Below are positions 292 through 30,585 of a stretch of DNA of 64,000 nt, in pieces (the first letter of the stretch is position 1; the number at the start of each line of letters is the position of its first letter). This DNA comes from Dehalococcoidia bacterium. Lineage in GTDB: Bacteria; Chloroflexota; Dehalococcoidia; DSTF01; RBG-16-68-14. The stretch covers positions 17,309-81,308 of the forward strand of contig JBBEBM010000042.1 in assembly GCA_040882355.1 (NCBI GenBank), in the 5' to 3' direction. Under the pieces are notes generated by a model. That model ran no database searches. It saw only the letters and a program-made list of their open reading frames with translations, and was not told the origin of the DNA. The position numbers and the translations under genes were made by a program.

Positions 292-1047
292 ATGGCAGTC
301 ACTGAGCAACCTCGAGGCCCGGGATTCGGTTCGTGGCTCTACGACAAACTCTTCCATAACTACATCTGGCGCTCTATCTTCCGTTCGGGCTACCCGAACA
401 CCCCCCGCAACCAGATGCTCGTCGTGGCCACCAACGTCTTCCTCCACCTTCATCCCACCCGCATCCACAAGACACACGTTCGGATCACCCACACATACTG
501 CCTCGGTGGCATCACCTTCTTCTTCTTCCTCGGACTCACGGTCACGGGCGTGATGCTCATGTTCTACTACCGCCCGTCTGCGGAACTCGCCTTCAGCGAC
601 ATCGCCGCGCTCGAGACCAACGTCCGATTCGGCATGCTGATGCGCAACCTCCACCGCTGGATGGCCCACGGCATGGTGATCTCAGTCTTCCTGCACATGA
701 TGCGGGTGTTCTACACCGGCGCCTACAAGCCACCGCGCGAGTTCAACTGGGTGGTCGGCGTCATCCTGCTCGTGCTGACGCTCGTGCTCAGCTACACCGG
801 CTACCTGCTCCCCTGGGACCAGCTCGCGATCTGGGCGGTGACGGTGGGCATGAACATGGCAGGTTCAGCGCCCGTGCTCGGCGAACAGTCCCGCATGGTT
901 ATGCTGGGCGGGTTCGAAGTGGGGCCGTCGGCGCTGATCCGCTTCTACACCCTCCACGTCATTGGGTTGCCCCTCCTTGCCGCGATCTTCATGGCCGTGC
1001 ACTTCTGGCGCATTCGACGTGATGGCGGGCTGGCCCGGCCTCTGTAA
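292..1047 (+). CDS. petB: cytochrome b (b6-like N-terminal haem-binding subunit) of a bc-type complex
   Basis: The 251-aa translation has the conserved cytochrome b/b6 N-terminal features: multiple TM helices and conserved His. It is followed by a subunit-IV-like gene and a Rieske gene. Confidence 0.85.
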
Positions 1048-2044: not shown

Positions 2045-2749
2045 ATGACCGAGCAAGAGAAGCAGGAACAGCCGGCCGAAGGACCGCCCGCCGCAGAGGG
2101 CGAAGCCGCCGACGCCGAGGCGACCGGCGCCACGGCGGACGCGGCGGGGCGCCGCCCCGCGCGCAAGGAACAGGCCGCGGCGCCCGCTGGGCCCTCGACG
2201 GCCGTCCTCGCCCGGCGCAACGTTCCCGGCGAGCCCGTCGTCTCCCGGCGCACCGTGTTGCGTGTCGGCTTCTGGGCCAGCCTGGGCGCCATGATCGCCG
2301 GCATCGGCGCGTGCAGCCTCGATCTCGTCTACCCGCGAGGCGTCACCGGCTTCGGTGGTACCGTCTCCGCTGGCGAGGTGAGCCAGTACCCGCCCGGCAG
2401 CAAGACACAGGTCCCGGAAGGGCGCTTCTGGGTCGTCAACCTGACGGCGGAGCAGGGTGGCCCCGGACTGCTCGCCCTCTGGTGGAAGTGCCCGCACCTC
2501 GGCTGCACCGTGCCCTGGCGACCCGAGTTCGTCTGGCCCGACCCGACCACGGGCGCGCCAAAGAAGGGCTGGTTCCGCTGCCCGTGCCACGGCTCTACCT
2601 ACACCGACGCCGGCGTCCGTGTGTTCGGGCCCGCGCCCAGGTCCATGGACACCATGGCCATGACGATCGAGAACGGGCGCATCAGCGTTGATACCGGCGG
2701 CGTCACGCCAGGTGGACCGGACAACCCGGACCGCGCGATACGAGTCTAG
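2045..2749 (+). CDS. Rieske [2Fe-2S] iron-sulfur protein
   Basis: It has the CPHLGC and CPCHGS Rieske boxes. Its ATG overlaps the stop of the upstream gene (TAGCATG). Confidence 0.85.
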   Translation: MTEQEKQEQPAEGPPAAEGEAADAEATGATADAAGRRPARKEQAAAPAGPSTAVLARRNVPGEPVVSRRTVLRVGFWASLGAMIAGIGACSLDLVYPRGVTGFGGTVSAGEVSQYPPGSKTQVPEGRFWVVNLTAEQGGPGLLALWWKCPHLGCTVPWRPEFVWPDPTTGAPKKGWFRCPCHGSTYTDAGVRVFGPAPRSMDTMAMTIENGRISVDTGGVTPGGPDNPDRAIRV

Positions 2750-2787: not shown

Positions 2788-5088
2788 ATGAACACCAGCA
2801 AGCAGATCAACGCTATGGTGGTCGTCCTCTTCCTTGCCCTGATCACCATCGGCGCCTACGTCGTCTGGGACCCCTTCCGCAGCGAAGCCGCCGAGGACCA
2901 GCAGCTCGATATCACCGTCGAGCGCGGCGCGACGACCTTCGCGCTCAACTGCCGCTTGTGCCACGGCGACCGGGGCGAGGGCGGATCGGATGGCGGACGG
3001 CTGGGGGTGGCGCCCGCGCTCGACCGGGAGGGCCTGCAGGGGATCGAAGGGGGCACGTTCACTGCGGCCGCGCACGCCGCAGCCTTCAAGCTCGTCTCGA
3101 ACACCATCACCTGCGGCCGCGCCGGCACGGCTATGCCTACATGGGGCGCCACTCAGGGCGGCACCCTGAACGAAGAACAGATCCGCCAGCTCACAGTGCT
3201 CATCACCCAGGGCACCCTGGCCGACGGCCGCTCGACGTGGGAGCTGGCGCAGGAGCACGCCGACGAGATCGACGCCGAGTCCACCGCACACGCCGAGCTT
3301 GAGATGCCCGACGGCTTGACCGCCGACGCCGGCGAGATTGTGGTCAGCAGCGCCGAGCTGTTCAACCGGGACCAGTACATCCGCATCGACGAAGAGCGCC
3401 TCTACATCCCCGGCTACCGGCTGGAGGTGCAGCGCGCCGTAAATGGCTCCGCAGGCGCCGAGCACGAAATCGGCACCGCGATCCTCGAAGTAGACGTCGA
3501 GACCGGGGAGACGGTCAAGTTCGCGATCGCGCCGGAAGACACCACCATCTACGTCAGTGGCGTTCGCGGCGTCGAGGTCGACGACGTTCTGCGTAGCATC
3601 GATGTCGGCGACACGATCCGGATCGGCGAAGAGCAGATGACGGTGACCGCCAGCGCTTCCGGCATCCCGACCACCGGTCAGTTCCTCATCGAAGAGATCG
3701 GTAGGACACCGGGCAGCTTCCTGGTGAGCGGCATCGAAGGTATCGAAGCGGGCGCCGTAATCCGGCTCAACGGCGAGCTGATGGTCGTCGAGGCGATTCG
3801 AGACGATGGCGAGACCGCGATCGAGGTCGACGCTAACGTAGACGCCTCCGCCGAGACCATCGCCGTCAGCGACCCCGCCTTCTTCGGCGCCGACTATGTG
3901 ATGCGCATCGGCGACGAGCTCCTCCGCGTGGTCGAGCCCGTCGAAACGGGCCAGGCCCTGGGCGACCCCATCGGCCGCGCAGAGACCACGTTCGCCCTGA
4001 GCGGCACCGAGGGACTCGAAGAAGGAATGATCGTCCGCATCGATAGCGAGCTGATGCGTATCACCGAGCTGACACCGGCGAGCATCGACGTCGATCGCGG
4101 AGCGCCGCTGGAGGAAGAAGGCGACGAAACCGCGCCCGCAGCCCACGACGCCTCCACGCCCATCCTCCTGACCGGCGTGGAGGAAGGCGAAGACCCGGAC
4201 ACCGACCAGACGCTGCTCGAAGCAGCGGACGCCGACGCCACAGCACTGACCGTCAGCGGCACCACTGGCCTCGCCGTCGGGCAGACGTTCCAGCTCGGAG
4301 ACGAAGGCGTGCTCGTCACCGACCTCGAGCCCGCCCGCGCCCGCGTCGAGCGCGCCGTCGAGGACACGGACCTCGCTCACCATACCCGCCGCACCGCGAT
4401 TCACGACGGCAACTTCCTTGAGGTCGAACGCGGCTTCGACGGTAGTAGCGCTTCTGCGCACGACGAAGGCGACCCCGTCAACATGTTCGAGCTCGAAGTC
4501 GAGCGCGCGGCGGAGGGCTCGGAGCTGCAGGAGCACGGAAGGGGCGCGGAGGTATTCCTCGGCAACGGGCTGATGGTCGTCCGTGGCGTCAAGAGCACCG
4601 AACCCGCCGAGCACGAAGACGGCGCCCTGGTGCGCAACTTCCCCATCGCGCCGGACAACCCGGCTGACACCGCCATCGCTTGCGGCCAGCTCGCACCTCC
4701 TGAAGGCCCCGAGCCGACAGCAGGGCCAACGCCCACGGCAGGCGCTGGCACGCCTGTGGACGTGTCCCTCATCGAGTTCGAAGTCATTCCGGATCCGACG
4801 AGTGTGGCAGGAGGCGCCATCAACTTCAACGTCGCGAACGACGGCGAGATAATTCACAACTTCCGCCTCGCACTCACCGATCTCGCCGCCGACGACCTGC
4901 CCACAAGCGGTGGATCGGTAGATGAAGGCGAGTTGGAGGTCGTCGCCACGACGGCCTCCGATCTTGACTCCGGCGGCTCGGAAACCGTGGCTGCGACGCT
5001 CGACGCAGGCAGCTACGTCATGTTCTGTAATATCGTCAGCCACTACCTCAACGGCATGTACGCGGAGTTCGAGGTCACCGGCCAGTAG
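2788..5088 (+). CDS. membrane-anchored mono-haem cytochrome c fused to about seven ~55-aa repeats and a C-terminal type-1-copper cupredoxin domain
   Basis: There is an N-terminal TM helix and a CRLCHGD (CxxCH) motif at nt ~2950 with a Met-Pro ligand region. Repeats of the form hRIGxExhxV span nt ~3370-4680. The C-terminus has cupredoxin ligands: HNF...FCNIVSHYLNGM. Confidence 0.75.
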   Translation: MNTSKQINAMVVVLFLALITIGAYVVWDPFRSEAAEDQQLDITVERGATTFALNCRLCHGDRGEGGSDGGRLGVAPALDREGLQGIEGGTFTAAAHAAAFKLVSNTITCGRAGTAMPTWGATQGGTLNEEQIRQLTVLITQGTLADGRSTWELAQEHADEIDAESTAHAELEMPDGLTADAGEIVVSSAELFNRDQYIRIDEERLYIPGYRLEVQRAVNGSAGAEHEIGTAILEVDVETGETVKFAIAPEDTTIYVSGVRGVEVDDVLRSIDVGDTIRIGEEQMTVTASASGIPTTGQFLIEEIGRTPGSFLVSGIEGIEAGAVIRLNGELMVVEAIRDDGETAIEVDANVDASAETIAVSDPAFFGADYVMRIGDELLRVVEPVETGQALGDPIGRAETTFALSGTEGLEEGMIVRIDSELMRITELTPASIDVDRGAPLEEEGDETAPAAHDASTPILLTGVEEGEDPDTDQTLLEAADADATALTVSGTTGLAVGQTFQLGDEGVLVTDLEPARARVERAVEDTDLAHHTRRTAIHDGNFLEVERGFDGSSASAHDEGDPVNMFELEVERAAEGSELQEHGRGAEVFLGNGLMVVRGVKSTEPAEHEDGALVRNFPIAPDNPADTAIACGQLAPPEGPEPTAGPTPTAGAGTPVDVSLIEFEVIPDPTSVAGGAINFNVANDGEIIHNFRLALTDLAADDLPTSGGSVDEGELEVVATTASDLDSGGSETVAATLDAGSYVMFCNIVSHYLNGMYAEFEVTGQ

Positions 5089-24122: not shown

Positions 24123-27100
24123 GTGCGACTCTTGCATATCGTAGCGGCCGTAGCTGGTGCGGTTCTGATCGTAGCCGTTATCCTAAGTGCTTCGTCACGC
24201 CCGGATGCCATTCTGGCCTCTGGCGCAACTGAGATCTCCGCCGGTGGAAGTCACACCTGTGCACGGACAGCGCTTGGAGACGTGAGGTGCTGGGGCCAGA
24301 ACCTGGTAGGACAACTAGGGAACGGTTCGTTCTCGGGGCCAACAGACGCGAATCCAATTCCGGTGGAGGTGTTGGGGCTGGAAGGCAGCGCAGTGATGGT
24401 GTCCGCCGGCGGACTCCACACGTGCGCTGTCACGGTGATCGGCGGCGTGAAGTGCTGGGGCGACAACTTTAGCGGGCAGTTAGGCGATGGCACAACACTG
24501 GAGCAACAGCCCCCTGGCCGGGCGATTCCCGTGGACGTGGTGGGCCTCGGCAGCGGCGTTGAGACTGTCAGCGCCGGCGGCTCGCACACGTGCGCTCTAA
24601 CCGCGGAGGGAGGAGTGAAGTGCTGGGGTGGAAACGAATTTGGACAACTAGGTGATGGAACGACCACTAATCGAGCCTTACCGGTAGATGTGGAAGGGCT
24701 CAGCGAAGGCGCAACGGCAGTGGCGGCGAGTGGTTTCCACAGCTGTGCCCTCATCGCGTCGGGAGGCGTCAAGTGCTGGGGCAATAACCAGGATGGGCAA
24801 CTGGGGAACGGAATGTTTGCTAACAGTGCGATCCCCGTTGACGTGGCCGGGTTAGATGATCCAGTGGTCAAACTAACAGCCGGGTTGGGCTATGATGGCC
24901 ACACCTGCGTCTTAACCGCAAAGGGAGGTGTGCGGTGCTGGGGTGGGAACGAGAATGGACAATTGGGTGATGGAACGACGATTGACAGAAGTACACCAGT
25001 TGGCGCGGCGGGACTTGCAAGCAGCGTGACCGGCGTGTCCGCGGGCGGCGGGGGATCCATCGCGCCGTTTGCAGGACACACGTGTGCGATCACCGAGTCG
25101 GGTGGGCTGAAGTGCTGGGGTGGGAACAACTCTGGCCAGCTGGGCGACGGAACGACTACGCAGCGCCTGGTTCCAGTCGATGTGACAGGATTGAGCGCAG
25201 ACGTGTCTCGCATATCGGCTGGAGGCGGCGGCGGATGGTCGCCGTACAGCGGCCACACATGCGCGGTAGCGACTGACGGCCGCGTGAAGTGCTGGGGCGG
25301 GAATCAGTATGGACAGTTGGGTGATGGTACGGATACCGCTTCCACCTCGCCGGTGGAGGTGGTTGGATTCAGTGTGAAGCCGACGGCTACGCCGACCGGA
25401 ACGTCTACACCGTGCGGGCCAGAAGGATGTCCTACACCGACGACGACCTCGACGCCTACAGCTACGAGAACGCGGACGCCTACGTCCACGCCGACCAATT
25501 CAGCCACTCCTACCATGACGGCCAGTCCCACAGGCTCAGCGACCAGCACTGCGACGAGGACGAACACGAGGACCGCTACGTCTACTCCATCACCGACCGG
25601 AACCCGAACACCCACGCCAACACGGACACCATCCGCCACGCCGACGGCAACCCCTGTGAAGGAGGGCTTGAAGGTGAAGGTGCTGGCACCGAATTTCGTG
25701 AGCCCGGGCCAGACCTTCAATTACGTGGTCACGTATACCAATGGTGCAACTTCTCCTATAGCCGATGCGAAGCTGATCAGCCGGCTTCCATCTACGGCCA
25801 CGTTCAATTGGTCGTGGCCGCCGGGAACCTACGATGCAGAATCGCGTACCGTCTCTTGGGACCTTGGAGCAATCAGCCAGGAGAGCAGCGGATCGTTTTC
25901 GGTTAGTGTCGTGACAAATTGGGGCCTGTCGGTGGGCACAGTCCTGGAGAACCTGGCTAGCGTGGAGCAACAGGGAGCTCCTGCGGAAGCGAGCTCTGCG
26001 CACCAGTCGACAGAAGTCGCTAGCGCTGGTGCGTTTCGGCTGCCGTTTGTTGGCCGCACGAGAGCGTCGACCTACGCTGGTCATGGCGAAGCTCTGGACT
26101 TCTGGATGCACCGCCCATCTGTGGACAACTCATGGAACGGCGAAGTCAGGGCAGCGCAGCGCGGTGTGGTCGTGTACGCGCAGATGAATGTCGCAGGTGG
26201 TTCGAGCTCCGCCTGCCCAGGTAGACCCGTTGGTTACGGCAATCTCGTGGTCCTGGAGCACCACATCAAGGGCGTTCGGTACACCACCCGATATGCGCAC
26301 CTCAGCACCTTCAACGTTAGAGTGGGGGAACAGGTACCGCAAGGGTACCTAGTAGGCACCTACGGCGATACTGGCTGTACTTTTTCGGCGACAGGTGACG
26401 CGAGACACCTTCACTTCGAGCTTCGGAAGGGCGGTGCATTCTGTCCACCACATCCCACGGCCTGCCCGTCAGTCTTCAGTGGCTCTGAGCTGGATATTAC
26501 CGGACTAAGCGGGATAACGAGCGTCGGCAGCCCAAGCGGGGGCGGAGATGCAACGGGGGCTCCGCTTGCTGCTTCGGGCCAGCTCAATCAGACACGGATA
26601 GTGGTGGCCAGCGATCCTAATGCGAAGCATGCCGACCGTGAGTTCGCTGAGCATGGTGACACGGTAAACTTCACTATCGAATTCGAGAACGAGGGTGAGG
26701 GCATCGCTTTCGGTGTCAATGTTGTGGACACGCTGGACCAGGACCTCGATGTTTCTACTCTACTGCTCCCGGAGGGAGAAGGCGGAATCTACGACGCTGC
26801 CACGAGGACAATCGCGTGGGACTTAGGTGAGGTGGGGCCAGGCGAAGGCGGGGAGTTGCACTTCATCGCCAACGTGCACGGCGATGCAGAATGTGGCGAC
26901 GAGGTGATGAACTCGGCGACCGTGAACTTCCCGAGCGTACCGGAAGTGACGACTACGAATGGCGTTTCCGTGGTGGTCATCGGTTCCGGGTGCGACCTCG
27001 ATTCCGACACCTTGCCTGATCTGATAGACAACTGCTCGATAATGTCGAATGGTCCTGCTCAAGCCGCCATTCCTGGCGTAGGGAACCAGACCGACAGTGA

Positions 27101-27707
27101 CAGTGACGGGGATGGAGACGCCTGCGACAATGACGACGACAACGACGGCATGCTGGATGCTTCCGAAGTCTTCTACAGCTGCATGGACCGCGTTGTGGCC
27201 GACGCTTCACTTGACTACGATGGCGATGACCTCGCCAACGCAGCCGAAATGAGCTTGTGGAAGACCTTTGGACTGAGCACGGATCCTTGCGACGCGGACA
27301 CGGACAGCGATGGATGCCTCGACGGGCGAGAGGTACTCACTCAGGCTGGCACGCAGGTGTCCGGCGGCCGCCGGGATCCCCTGTACTTCTGGGACTACTT
27401 CGACGTGCCGACAGGCTTGCCGCCGACGCGCGACGGTGCCGTGAGTGCGGGAGATGTTGCTGGGGTGGTGGCCCGGTTCGGCTCAAACGACGATGCGCCC
27501 GGCACTTTCGATCGCGGGAGCGATCCCCTGTCCGCTCCGCAGGCGCCAGTGCAGCCCTCGGGCGCCCGGGCCAACTACCACCCCGTGTACGACAGAACCG
27601 GCGTGACGCCAGGCGGCGAGACTTGGGATCTCCTGCCGCCGAACGGTTCTATAACGTCGGGAGACCTTGCGGCGGTTGTGGCACAGTTCGGCCACAGTTG
27701 CATCTAG
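24123..27707 (+). CDS. secreted multidomain protein: signal/TM, 7x RCC1 repeats, T/P linker, DUF11-like, M23 peptidase, DUF11-like, TSP3-like Ca-binding repeats, dockerin-like C-terminus
   Basis: RCC1 repeats follow CWGxNxxGQLG(D/N)G. The T/P linker is at nt ~25390-25650. The M23 domain has HLHFEL (nt ~26090-26450). Asp-rich DxDxDGxxD repeats precede the C-terminal ...WDYFDVPTG...AGDVAGVVARFG...SGDLAAVVAQFGHSCI. Confidence 0.7.
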   Translation: MRLLHIVAAVAGAVLIVAVILSASSRPDAILASGATEISAGGSHTCARTALGDVRCWGQNLVGQLGNGSFSGPTDANPIPVEVLGLEGSAVMVSAGGLHTCAVTVIGGVKCWGDNFSGQLGDGTTLEQQPPGRAIPVDVVGLGSGVETVSAGGSHTCALTAEGGVKCWGGNEFGQLGDGTTTNRALPVDVEGLSEGATAVAASGFHSCALIASGGVKCWGNNQDGQLGNGMFANSAIPVDVAGLDDPVVKLTAGLGYDGHTCVLTAKGGVRCWGGNENGQLGDGTTIDRSTPVGAAGLASSVTGVSAGGGGSIAPFAGHTCAITESGGLKCWGGNNSGQLGDGTTTQRLVPVDVTGLSADVSRISAGGGGGWSPYSGHTCAVATDGRVKCWGGNQYGQLGDGTDTASTSPVEVVGFSVKPTATPTGTSTPCGPEGCPTPTTTSTPTATRTRTPTSTPTNSATPTMTASPTGSATSTATRTNTRTATSTPSPTGTRTPTPTRTPSATPTATPVKEGLKVKVLAPNFVSPGQTFNYVVTYTNGATSPIADAKLISRLPSTATFNWSWPPGTYDAESRTVSWDLGAISQESSGSFSVSVVTNWGLSVGTVLENLASVEQQGAPAEASSAHQSTEVASAGAFRLPFVGRTRASTYAGHGEALDFWMHRPSVDNSWNGEVRAAQRGVVVYAQMNVAGGSSSACPGRPVGYGNLVVLEHHIKGVRYTTRYAHLSTFNVRVGEQVPQGYLVGTYGDTGCTFSATGDARHLHFELRKGGAFCPPHPTACPSVFSGSELDITGLSGITSVGSPSGGGDATGAPLAASGQLNQTRIVVASDPNAKHADREFAEHGDTVNFTIEFENEGEGIAFGVNVVDTLDQDLDVSTLLLPEGEGGIYDAATRTIAWDLGEVGPGEGGELHFIANVHGDAECGDEVMNSATVNFPSVPEVTTTNGVSVVVIGSGCDLDSDTLPDLIDNCSIMSNGPAQAAIPGVGNQTDSDSDGDGDACDNDDDNDGMLDASEVFYSCMDRVVADASLDYDGDDLANAAEMSLWKTFGLSTDPCDADTDSDGCLDGREVLTQAGTQVSGGRRDPLYFWDYFDVPTGLPPTRDGAVSAGDVAGVVARFGSNDDAPGTFDRGSDPLSAPQAPVQPSGARANYHPVYDRTGVTPGGETWDLLPPNGSITSGDLAAVVAQFGHSCI

Positions 27708-28887: not shown

Positions 28888-30585
28888 TCAGGCGCAACTG
28901 TGGCCGAACTGCGCGACGGAGGCGGCGATGTCGCCGGCGGTGATCGAACCGTCGGCGGGCTGGAGGTCCCACGGCTCGCCACCCGGCAGGATGCCGCCGC
29001 GCTCGTACGCGCTGTGGTAGGCGGGCGCGGGCGGCGGCGGCGAAAGCGGGTCGCCCGGCTTGCCCGTCGCGCCGAAGCGCGCGACGACGCCCGCGATGTC
29101 GCCGGCGGTGACGGCGCGGTCGCGTGCGGGCGGCGGAGCGCCCGTTGGCACGTCGAAGAAGTCCCAGAGGTTGTTGGGGTCGCGTCGCCCGCCCTCCGTG
29201 GCATCGAGGCCCAGCTCCTGCGCGTCGCTGCAGCCGTCGCCGTCGCTGTCTTTGAGCAGGACAGGCGCCGGCAGCGGGCTGTCGGTCGTCGAGCCGTCGC
29301 CGAGCTGGCCGAAGGCGTTATCGCCCCAGCAGAGGACCGCGCCCGACGCAATCGCGCAGGTGTGCAGCGTACCGGCCGCAACAGCTTCGACGCCGCTGAG
29401 CGCAACGCAGGGCAGGTCGGCGCAGACGGCCACGGGGTTGTGCCAGTCGGTCGTGGTGCCGTCGCCGAGCTGGTTGCTGGCGTTGCGGCCCCAGCAGCGC
29501 GCGCCGCCGTTCGAGAGCGCCGCGCACGAGTGCTCGTCGCCCAAGCTGAGGCCGTCGATGCCCGTCAGCGCGACCCCGCCCGCGCAGTTCGTGCCCACGC
29601 CCGTCGCGCAGACGTCGAAGGGGTTCGCCCGCTGGAACGCCGTGCCTTCGCCGAGCTGGCCGCGGAAGTTCAGGCCCCAGCACTTCGCGCCGCCGTTCGA
29701 CATCAGCGCGCAGCTATGCCTGCCGCCCGCGTCGATGTCGCTCACGCCGGAGAGCAGAGCGCAGCCTGCGCCGGAGCCGAACTGACAGACGTCCGTGGGA
29801 CTGGGGCGCGGGTGAACGGCGGTGCCGTCGCCGACCTGGTTCTCGGAGTTCTGTCCCCAGCACTTCACGCCGCCGTTCGACATCAGCGCGCACGTGTGGT
29901 CGATGCCCGCGGCGATATCGACCACGTCCCCGAGGGCGGCGCAGGTAGCGGCGCTTCCCGTGGCGCAGACCGTCGCCGGCAGCGCGACGTCGAAGGCAAG
30001 GCCGTCGCCCAGCGCGCCCGCGGTGTTATCGCCCCAGCAGCGCGCTTCGCCGCTCGAGAGCGCCGCGCACGAGTGGTCCTTGCCCGCTGCGATCGCCGCG
30101 CTGCTGACACCATCCATGCCGGACACGTGGATCGGCAGCGGGTGCGCGTTCGTGTCCTGCGTGCCGATGCCGAGCTGCCCCTGGTTGTTCGCGCCCCAGC
30201 ACATCACGCCGTTGTCCGTGTTGAGGGCGCACGTGTGGAAGCCGCTCTCGCCGCCCGCCGCGATGGCGATGATGCCGGTGAGCGACCCACCGCCGGCGCA
30301 GCCCGCCCCCGAGCCGCTGGCGCAGACCTCCACGGGCGACGTGCGCATCGCGGCCGAGGTGCCGTCGCCGAGCTGGCCCCAGGTGTTGTCGCCCCAGCAC
30401 TTGACGGTGGTGTTGTCGAAGAGGGCGCAGGTATGGGCGCCGCCCGCCACGATCTCGATGACCTGGGCGCCTGTCGCAGCGGCTTCCGGCGGGCCGCCGG
30501 GCCGTCCGAGCGCGAGGCCCGCCGCCAGCGCCGCTATCGCGACGCCGAACGCCACCCCCACCAGCACCCATCGATTCACAAGCAT
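28888..30585 (-). CDS. secreted RCC1-repeat protein (7 repeats) with a TSP3-like repeat and the same dockerin-like C-terminal module
   Basis: It has an N-terminal signal/TM, CWGDNTxGQLGDG repeats, and the C-terminus DSDGDGCSD...LWDFFDVPTG...AGDIAGVVARFG...AGDIAASVAQFGHSCA, which is homologous to the C-terminus of 24123..27707. Confidence 0.7.
   Translation of the reverse strand: MLVNRWVLVGVAFGVAIAALAAGLALGRPGGPPEAAATGAQVIEIVAGGAHTCALFDNTTVKCWGDNTWGQLGDGTSAAMRTSPVEVCASGSGAGCAGGGSLTGIIAIAAGGESGFHTCALNTDNGVMCWGANNQGQLGIGTQDTNAHPLPIHVSGMDGVSSAAIAAGKDHSCAALSSGEARCWGDNTAGALGDGLAFDVALPATVCATGSAATCAALGDVVDIAAGIDHTCALMSNGGVKCWGQNSENQVGDGTAVHPRPSPTDVCQFGSGAGCALLSGVSDIDAGGRHSCALMSNGGAKCWGLNFRGQLGEGTAFQRANPFDVCATGVGTNCAGGVALTGIDGLSLGDEHSCAALSNGGARCWGRNASNQLGDGTTTDWHNPVAVCADLPCVALSGVEAVAAGTLHTCAIASGAVLCWGDNAFGQLGDGSTTDSPLPAPVLLKDSDGDGCSDAQELGLDATEGGRRDPNNLWDFFDVPTGAPPPARDRAVTAGDIAGVVARFGATGKPGDPLSPPPPAPAYHSAYERGGILPGGEPWDLQPADGSITAGDIAASVAQFGHSCA

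Follow-up and report, generated by a model that had tools for sequence, protein, structure and literature searches.

The exit of electrons from Rieske/cytochrome b complexes varies between lineages, and no description of it was found in the literature for the aerobic Dehalococcoidia-class Chloroflexota, a mostly uncultured group that abounds in soils, aquifers, and oceans. Such an exit seems to be encoded in the DNA analysed here, a window of 64,000 nucleotides (nt) from a Dehalococcoidia bacterium (assembly GCA_040882355.1, contig JBBEBM010000042.1, positions 17,309 to 81,308), in which a cytochrome bc operon ends with the gene for a chain of 766 amino acids (aa) that joins a membrane-anchored cytochrome c, a long body of beta repeats, and a C-terminal cupredoxin. 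The host is an aerobic Dehalococcoidia-class Chloroflexota, and the complex is a b6-type quinol:acceptor oxidoreductase. We consider it probable that the fusion protein is the QcrC-like cytochrome c subunit of this complex, with a tethered auracyanin-type domain as its second redox module and with the repeat block as an accessory off the electron path.

Among the described systems, QcrC, the dihaem cytochrome cc of the bcc complex (PDB 9wcx, 7q21, and 6hwh), is likewise encoded with cytochrome b and the Rieske protein and likewise carries two redox modules in one membrane-anchored chain, an arrangement in which no soluble carrier is needed. However, the second module of the window protein is a cupredoxin on a flexible linker and not a haem c, its anchor is N-terminal, the cytochrome b of its system is split (b6-type, with a CxGG motif), and a beta insert of 450 aa is present. 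In the SoxM supercomplex of Sulfolobus, the sulfocyanin SoxE is a blue copper link between the Rieske/cytochrome b module and the terminal oxidase; the window protein would provide a link of the same kind, but SoxE is a separate archaeal subunit without a fused haem c. Auracyanins A and B of Chloroflexus and Roseiflexus (6kol, 1qhq/1ov8, and 2aan) are membrane-tethered carriers from the same phylum, and the copper domain of the window protein has the same C-x4-H-x4-M spacing and an identical 'HY..GM'. Nevertheless, auracyanins are independent proteins with alternative complex III as their partner (PMC10873879, PMC7439408), whereas in the window protein the domain forms part of the cytochrome c of a Rieske/cytochrome b complex. 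Carriers fused by a linker to their partner are found in tethered-partner enzymes such as cytochrome c- and cupredoxin-fused copper nitrite reductases and caa3 oxidases, and with the anchored cytochrome cy (PMC13324648, PMC9358711). The window protein shares this principle in a different enzyme, and none of those systems has a repeat or LysM insert between the modules. No paper describing a fusion of haem c and blue copper of this type was found in the literature.

The protein is present in the databases in identical form (P0001) as 'MAG: cytochrome c [Dehalococcoidia bacterium]', where MAG stands for metagenome-assembled genome, and its homologues carry generic names, either 'c-type cytochrome' or 'mono/diheme cytochrome c family protein / uncharacterized cupredoxin-like copper-binding protein'. 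A full-length AlphaFold2 (AF2) model built with the family alignment is confident, with a predicted local distance difference test score (pLDDT) of 91.3 and a predicted template modelling score (pTM) of 0.76. The N-terminal domain can be assigned as a predicted class I haem c domain, since it combines a CxxCH motif with a distal Met in a conserved loop and with similarity to class I domains, and it is closest to the domains of actinobacterial QcrC and CcoP. Thus, the family profile of this domain matched CcoP (E=5e-12), actinobacterial QcrC (E=1.9e-10), and cytochrome c6 (about 1e-4) in the PDB, whereas a single-sequence search returned only spurious armadillo-repeat matches and weak QcrC matches, so that profiles were required. 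C55, C58, H59, C109, M116, P117, and W119 are invariant in the domain, and across 89 aligned full-length homologues conservation is 90% or more for the haem residues, for M116, and for all four copper ligands. Membership of the actinobacterial QcrC family proper (NF050122) was rejected, as the protein has one CxxCH instead of two and scores 27.5 bits against a cut-off of 200.

The C-terminal domain is predicted to be an auracyanin-type cupredoxin with the complete His/Cys/His/Met set of type-1 ligands, in which a beta-sandwich fold in the model and the order His...Cys-x(n)-His-x(n)-Met at homologous positions coincide. The ligand pattern, H690 ... C747-x4-H752-x4-M757, is invariant across 22 diverse sequences, and the motif aligns residue by residue, as 'CNIVSHYLNGM', with 'CTYPAHYAGGM' and 'CTFPGHYLAGM' of auracyanins. 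Auracyanins were also matched by the profile of the domain in the PDB (E=1.4e-5, 1.5e-5, and 9e-3), and in a Foldseek search of the full model against the PDB cupredoxins dominate, with auracyanin 6kol (TM 0.66, probability 1.0) followed by matches such as 1qhq, AcoP, rusticyanin, and the Cupredoxin_1 structure 4hcf. The cupredoxin region (aa 651-766) is modelled with a pLDDT of 86-97, and the linker ahead of it is the sole low-confidence part of the AF2 model (pLDDT 50-64 over aa 630-650 and below 50 at aa 640-647). A place in the sulfocyanin SoxE family (PF06525, TIGR03094) was tried and rejected, with a Pfam score of 18.5 against a cut-off of 21 (E=1.5e-3) and an NCBIfam score of 11.9 against 168.4.

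The domain could also serve in copper handling, as a resistance protein or chaperone of the CopI type, instead of carrying electrons. A weak NCBIfam match to CopI (E=3.5e-4) would agree with this function, but its 20 bits are far under the cut-off of 280; moreover, the type-1 ligands are all invariant and spaced as in auracyanins, and some orthologues have a second haem c domain in place of the cupredoxin, all of which makes copper handling barely tenable. In the related MAG GCA_964406605.1 (locus L002, 5246..6876), copper chaperone genes for SCO1/SenC and PCuAC (PF04314) stand immediately upstream of the bc operon. These neighbours could be cited for copper handling, and they are equally a point for the copper carrier.

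The features of the locus are collected in Table 1. The genes for cytochrome b6, the subunit IV-like protein, the Rieske protein, and the fusion are separated by 12, 1, and 38 nt, respectively, and the next gene downstream, for an amidohydrolase, starts 420 nt further on; therefore, the fusion gene is the terminal one of the cluster. The same gene order was found in loci L002, L004, and L068, and a Rieske motif lies directly upstream of the fusion-gene orthologue in 72 of the 74 related loci. The cytochrome b6 subunit contains YCLGG at aa 69-73, a CxGG motif of the kind that binds the extra haem c_n in b6f-type complexes (PMC5600118), and this motif occurs in 62 of 63 related loci. The gene data, thus, combine operon membership with cytochrome b, subunit IV, and Rieske genes and an N-terminal membrane anchor, as befits the cytochrome c subunit of a bc complex; the anchor helix is kept in all orthologues. 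The sequence-only reading of this DNA had described a terminal operon gene behind cytochrome b, subunit IV, and Rieske, a membrane-anchored mono-haem cytochrome c with CRLCH, and a type-1 copper cupredoxin at the C-terminus. This outline stands, with a 766-aa open reading frame (ORF), an anchor, a single CxxCH, M116, and four conserved copper ligands whose closest solved relatives are the auracyanins; the modelling of the full protein that it had proposed gave the confident structure described above, whose C-terminal part is recognised as a cupredoxin fold by Foldseek.

Table 1. Coordinates in the window of the genes of the bc operon and of the parts of the fusion protein.
Feature	Coordinates	Strand	Basis
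Cytochrome b6-type subunit, four-helix split form	292..1047	+	Pfam PF00033, E=3e-45
Subunit IV-like protein, unusually long, 327 aa	1060..2043	+	Pfam PF00032, aa 61-115 only
Rieske iron-sulfur subunit	2045..2749	+	Pfam PF00355; CPHLGC...CPCH motif present
Cytochrome c/cupredoxin fusion gene (transmembrane anchor, cytochrome c, beta-repeat body, linker, cupredoxin), 766 aa	2788..5088	+	ORF
N-terminal hydrophobic helix, signal-anchor, aa 7-27	2806..2868	+	sequence INAMVVVLFLALITIGAYVVW; AF2 helix aa 3-27
Class I monohaem cytochrome c domain, aa ~36-165	2893..3282	+	Pfam PF13442, E=1e-5; family profile
CRLCH haem motif, aa 55-59	2950-2964	+	sole CxxCH of the protein
Putative clamp Cys109	3112-3114	+	T-x-x-C-G-R motif
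Axial Met116	3133-3135	+	AMPTWG / invariant G-x-x-M-P-x-W motif
All-beta body (aa 178-628) of nine full or half repeats of a ~55-aa beta-barrel module	3319..4671	+	
Unit 1, full, aa 184-234	3337..3489	+	unit hidden Markov model (HMM)
Unit 2, N-half only, aa 270-291	3595..3660	+	unit HMM
Unit 3, N-half only, aa 311-338	3718..3801	+	unit HMM
Unit 4, N-half only, aa 358-387	3859..3948	+	unit HMM
Unit 5, full, aa 402-460	3991..4167	+	unit HMM
Unit 6, full, aa 487-541	4246..4410	+	unit HMM
Unit 7, C-half only, aa 544-564	4417..4479	+	unit HMM
Unit 8, C-half only, aa 568-591	4489..4560	+	unit HMM
Unit 9, C-half only, aa 592-615	4561..4632	+	unit HMM
Cys632 of the invariant CGQ motif, putative disulfide partner of Cys109	4681..4683	+	invariant, 89 homologues
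Flexible linker, Pro/Thr/Gly/Ala-rich, aa 633-654, ~22 residues	4684..4749	+	low model confidence
Auracyanin-type type-1 copper cupredoxin domain, aa 655-766	4750..5085	+	Foldseek, profile, conserved ligands
Cu ligand codon H690	4855-4857	+	
Cu ligand codon C747	5026-5028	+	
Cu ligand codon H752	5041-5043	+	
Cu ligand codon M757	5056-5058	+	

Relatives of the fusion protein occur in at least 274 species-level genomes in a scan with one genome per species, nearly all of them MAGs of Chloroflexota/Dehalococcoidia, and the cultured Tepidiforma flava is among the carriers of the family. This spread suggests that a cytochrome c with a built-in blue-copper carrier could be the standard solution of these Chloroflexota. 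For a comparison of forms, 76 complete orthologues were reconstructed. Long forms like the window protein (n=13; 676-773 aa) have the auracyanin-type copper motif and 5-9 unit matches, short forms (about 50) have 1-3 units and a plastocyanin-type cupredoxin, and minimal forms (n=4; 277-310 aa) are without an insert; in LysM forms, including that of T. flava (n=6), the slot holds LysM domains, dihaem forms (n=3) have a second CxxCH domain and no cupredoxin, and two forms have units and no cupredoxin. The copper module is itself swapped within the family, as in P0002, which is 72% identical to the window protein and in which a plastocyanin-type cupredoxin replaces the auracyanin type. P0002, P0027, and P0090 are all long-form homologues with this plastocyanin-type domain (…FQCDVHxxxMxG…). 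The dihaem orthologues (L053, L072, and L074) are QcrC-like and occupy the same operon position, which supports the equivalence of the copper domain with the second haem domain of QcrC.

In the mechanism proposed, the Rieske cluster would reduce haem c, which would fill the role of cytochrome c1 or f, and haem c would then reduce the tethered copper domain. The latter would swing on its linker and deliver the electron to a terminal acceptor, for which the CuA centre of a haem-copper oxidase is the likeliest candidate, and could in this way stand in for the second haem domain of QcrC or for a soluble or anchored auracyanin or cytochrome c. Such a fusion would bring together two solutions, the 'auracyanin' of phototrophic Chloroflexota and the 'fused second redox domain' of Actinobacteria.

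The repeat body between the two redox modules contains nine unit matches to a 55-position HMM within aa 184-615 (nt 3337-4632). The N-halves carry the core 'h-x-R-I-x-x-E-x-h-x-V' already noticed in the sequence-only reading, and the C-halves the signature 'L-x-V-x-R-G-x-x-G-[ST]-x-A-x-x-H-x-x-G-x-x-V'. To control for circularity, the HMM was rebuilt from 928 copies in unrelated proteins only, and the same nine units were recovered, while 500 shuffles of the repeat region gave a mean of 0.01 matches and a maximum of 1; profile-profile comparison of unit against unit yielded probabilities of 85-99% for related pairs. The AlphaFold model of the repeat region alone (aa 178-628) is all beta, with a pLDDT of 93.7 and a pTM of 0.83, and therefore the block is modelled as a single rigid body and not as beads on a string. 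A Foldseek search of this whole body against the PDB gave no significant match (best E=0.012). The sequence-only reading had counted about seven copies of a ~55-aa repeat without a named domain, and had conceived the whole as a built-in electron wire. The repeats are real, but they resolve into 3 full units, 3 N-halves, and 3 C-halves; as for the wire, a built-in carrier is reasonable, whereas the repeat scaffold as wire or spacer is unsupported in view of the missing cofactor motifs, the dispensable slot, and the flanking Cys pair considered below.

This Cys pair (CGR/CGQ; C109 and C632 in the window protein) is present in 76 of 76 orthologues, regardless of the insert. C109 lies seven residues ahead of the haem Met and C632 just past the slot, ahead of the linker; in insert-less forms, CGQ stands about 10-15 residues past the last cytochrome c helix. 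The simplest reading, drawn from this conservation, is that C109 and C632 probably form a disulfide that pins the chain back onto the cytochrome c domain. Since the pair is invariant and flanks the slot, the chain would return to the cytochrome c domain before the cupredoxin linker begins, and the insert would probably be a side excursion, with the cupredoxin linker leaving from the cytochrome c domain. In many short forms, one beta-barrel unit interrupts the cytochrome c domain, with the CxxCH helix before it and the Met loop after it (for example P0101, P0110, and P0115-P0117, and loci L046, L047, L049, L050, L055, and others), and in these forms the CGR Cys is shifted from about aa 110 to about aa 176-181.

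The slot is empty in some orthologues and filled with LysM in others, and therefore the repeat insert is accessory, that is, dispensable or replaceable. The LysM-form loci are L068 (5001..6851; T. flava NZ_CP115149.1), L069, L071, L076, L081, and L082; the four of these proteins that were scanned have 3-5 LysM stretches each (Pfam E 1e-27 to 1e-50), and no LysM (PF01476) was found in the window protein. The orthologue of T. flava, a protein of 616 aa encoded in strain YIM 72310 at about 1,409,962-1,411,812 of NZ_CP115149.1, has five LysM stretches in the slot of the beta-barrel units, N instead of D two residues past CxxCH, and the cupredoxin motif CDYHPPM. As the LysM form is carried by a cultured bacterium, parts of the idea become testable. 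A swappable slot (nothing, beta-barrel repeats, or LysM) is unusual inside a core respiratory subunit.

Electrons might nevertheless be conducted through the repeat scaffold itself, or the scaffold might fix the distance between haem c and copper on the way to a distant acceptor. In linear sequence the block does lie between both redox domains, it is modelled as a rigid body, and a conserved His recurs in each C-half. However, aa 178-628 hold no Cys, no CxxCH, and no other cofactor motifs, and about 450 residues without cofactors cannot conduct over their own length at physiological rates, as the limit for electron tunnelling is about 14 Å. Moreover, the conserved Glu, Arg, and His show the same conservation in phage tail proteins and among 928 copies of the unit in unrelated giant proteins, which marks them as fold residues, orthologues with an empty or LysM-filled slot exist, and the invariant Cys pair argues for a return of the chain to the cytochrome c domain. 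The electron wire is, thus, very improbable. Judged from its sequence and that of its orthologues, the repeat body is not on the electron path, being without cofactor motifs, dispensable, and replaceable by LysM.

The repeat unit is found far beyond this family. A search of its profile against 1.84 billion cluster representatives retrieved 8,451 proteins at E<=1e-3 and 1,189 at E<=1e-10, among them giants of 3,000-7,900 aa; a single protein can hold up to 33 copies. The metagenomic protein P0121 (7,472 aa) has 33 unit copies and is present as 25 near-identical copies. A strong match with 11 unit copies, P0127, is filed under a eukaryotic alga (Rhodomonas salina set), which contamination may explain. 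The consensus of the outside copies is I-x-I-D-s-E-x-M-x-V-T-A-V-s-G-N-T-L-T-V-x-R-G-x-n-G-T-x-A-A-x-H-x-a-G-A-x-V, and Glu, Arg, and His are conserved in 93%, 97%, and 86% of the 928 copies, respectively; since these residues are equally conserved in unrelated proteins, they are fold determinants and not cofactor ligands. A role of the conserved unit His as a metal ligand was rejected on the same ground, and no family-specific conserved residues were found in the repeat scaffold of the window protein.

Named families do not account for the unit. In Pfam-A and NCBIfam (Big_2, fn3, PKD, etc.), no family was matched at E<=10 by single units, and the whole block gave only chance-level matches (E 0.03-0.3). 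Outside proteins with 10-16 unit copies matched no Pfam family, with only faint hints of MJ0548_C, EFP_N, and SH3-like domains, and a cluster look-up of ten outside unit-bearing proteins returned no informative names. Thus, the repeat lacks a named domain, as the sequence-only reading had proposed, and the trivial explanation that it had allowed for, a known domain such as Big_2 or fibronectin, found no match; it had also called the repeat uncharacterised, and although the unit is unnamed, it is not unique to the window protein. Two solved phage proteins were matched by the unit profile, namely 8vjh_A, a minor tail protein from phage Chi (E=4.5e-12, two copies), and 8rk3_o, which is protein J, the tip attachment protein of JBD30 (E=2e-4). 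Both sequence-profile and fold similarity place the unit with the tail-tip module of signature I-x-I-D-x-E-x-M-x-V ... V-x-R-G-x-x-G-T-x-A-x-x-H-x-x-G-x-x-V. Tail-fibre and tail families of PHROGs also match the unit (best E=1.4e-6), and a tblastn search of one unit against a phage collection gave weak matches (E 2e-3 to 0.6) in genes for tails, tail fibres, and capsids, which are consistent with the link to tail proteins and not conclusive alone. By its profile, the repeat unit is a widespread module homologous to a domain of phage tail-tip proteins, and it is also frequent in tail-fibre proteins and in giant surface proteins of bacteria. The barrels of siphophage tail tips (8vjh_A and 8rk3_o) would be the same module, with a more distant likeness to the I-domain of the P22 coat protein and to the domain II barrels of EF-Tu. 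Compared with phage tail-tip proteins, the module here sits in a respiratory cytochrome, with its full and half units in one rigid body, and ties a phage tail-tip module to bioenergetics. As a large unnamed domain family (8,451 clusters), the unit deserves a profile entry.

If the insert is off the electron path, its role would most likely be structural or associated with the envelope: it would hold the redox head that is exposed on the outer side of the membrane, space it, or shield it. This analogy is suggested because LysM fills the same slot in Tepidiforma and because the relatives of the unit are surface proteins and receptor-side proteins of phages; LysM binds wall glycans. More specifically, the nine-unit body could be an out-and-back 'split-barrel' stalk that couples the bc redox head to the envelope; with the complex projected into the wall zone, the auracyanin domain on its tether could serve partners beyond the membrane surface. 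The order of three N-halves, two full units, and three C-halves, together with chain ends that need to meet, suggests such a stalk, in which the three C-half units would complement the three N-half ones and the full units would form the tip. The idea seems rather unlikely, yet, if true, the stalk would be a new way to organise respiration in bacteria without a conventional periplasm.

The same observations on the envelope could also be read in terms of a partner outside the cell, with the beta body, or LysM in relatives, docking on the wall, an S-layer, a mineral, or another cell, and with the copper domain trading electrons with an external donor or acceptor, for example in metal oxidation whose electrons would run back through the bc complex, in the manner of the rusticyanin pathway in acidophiles. 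The kinship of the unit with receptor-side tail proteins and giant surface proteins and the LysM domains in the slot of Tepidiforma would fit, as would the fold matches to rusticyanin and AcoP, which are cupredoxins of iron oxidisers. Nevertheless, the best cupredoxin matches in both sequence and fold are auracyanins, no genes for outer electron conduits were seen near the operon, and the spread of the family over at least 274 species-level genomes, regularly as fourth gene of the bc operon, is in keeping with a housekeeping role in respiration, which leaves an external partner improbable. Little chance can be given, too, to a repeat body that acts as a docking platform and holds the bc complex and the terminal oxidase together as a supercomplex. 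Fused second redox modules do accompany obligate supercomplexes in Actinobacteria (QcrC), and the body is modelled as rigid, but a slot that can be empty or filled with glycan-binding LysM is hard to square with specific protein-protein docking, and the number of units ranges from 0 to 9 among orthologues.

The QcrC-like subunit with a tethered copper carrier, thus, accounts best for the locus, and several points weigh against it. The single-sequence score of the haem c domain for PF13442 (26.3) is slightly below the gathering cut-off of 27, and that of the cupredoxin for the Pfam family of SoxE is also slightly under its threshold. No terminal oxidase or partner gene was found among ten large ORFs scanned elsewhere in the window; we infer an oxidase as the terminal acceptor. 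Furthermore, the envelope role of the beta body is built on analogy, with the LysM slot and with phage and surface relatives.

The remaining subunits of the complex show some peculiarities. Cytochrome b6 scores 289.7 bits for the NCBIfam family ExtP (cytochrome b of a selenite/tellurite reduction operon), with a cut-off of 290. With its 327 aa, the subunit IV-like ORF is roughly double the normal size, its orthologues are similarly long at 318 (L002), 338 (L004), and 296 aa (L068), and it contains a Trp-rich hydrophilic stretch of about 100-130 aa (…DADWEWPAQL…DWMQWDQPNWPGWMLAMYWYDLNWNFPAF…) followed by two more hydrophobic helices. In the Rieske protein, the twin-arginine-like 'SRRTVLR' anchor is preceded by about 60 aa of an N-terminal extension rich in Ala, Glu, and Pro. 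A promoter and terminator scan gave 0 promoter-like sites and 1 terminator-like site, which is not above the expectation from shuffles. Elsewhere in the window, 24123..27707 encodes a protein of 1,194 aa with RCC1-like repeats, an M23 peptidase domain, and DUF11, and a second RCC1-repeat protein of 565 aa is encoded nearby on the opposite strand (28888..30585, minus strand).

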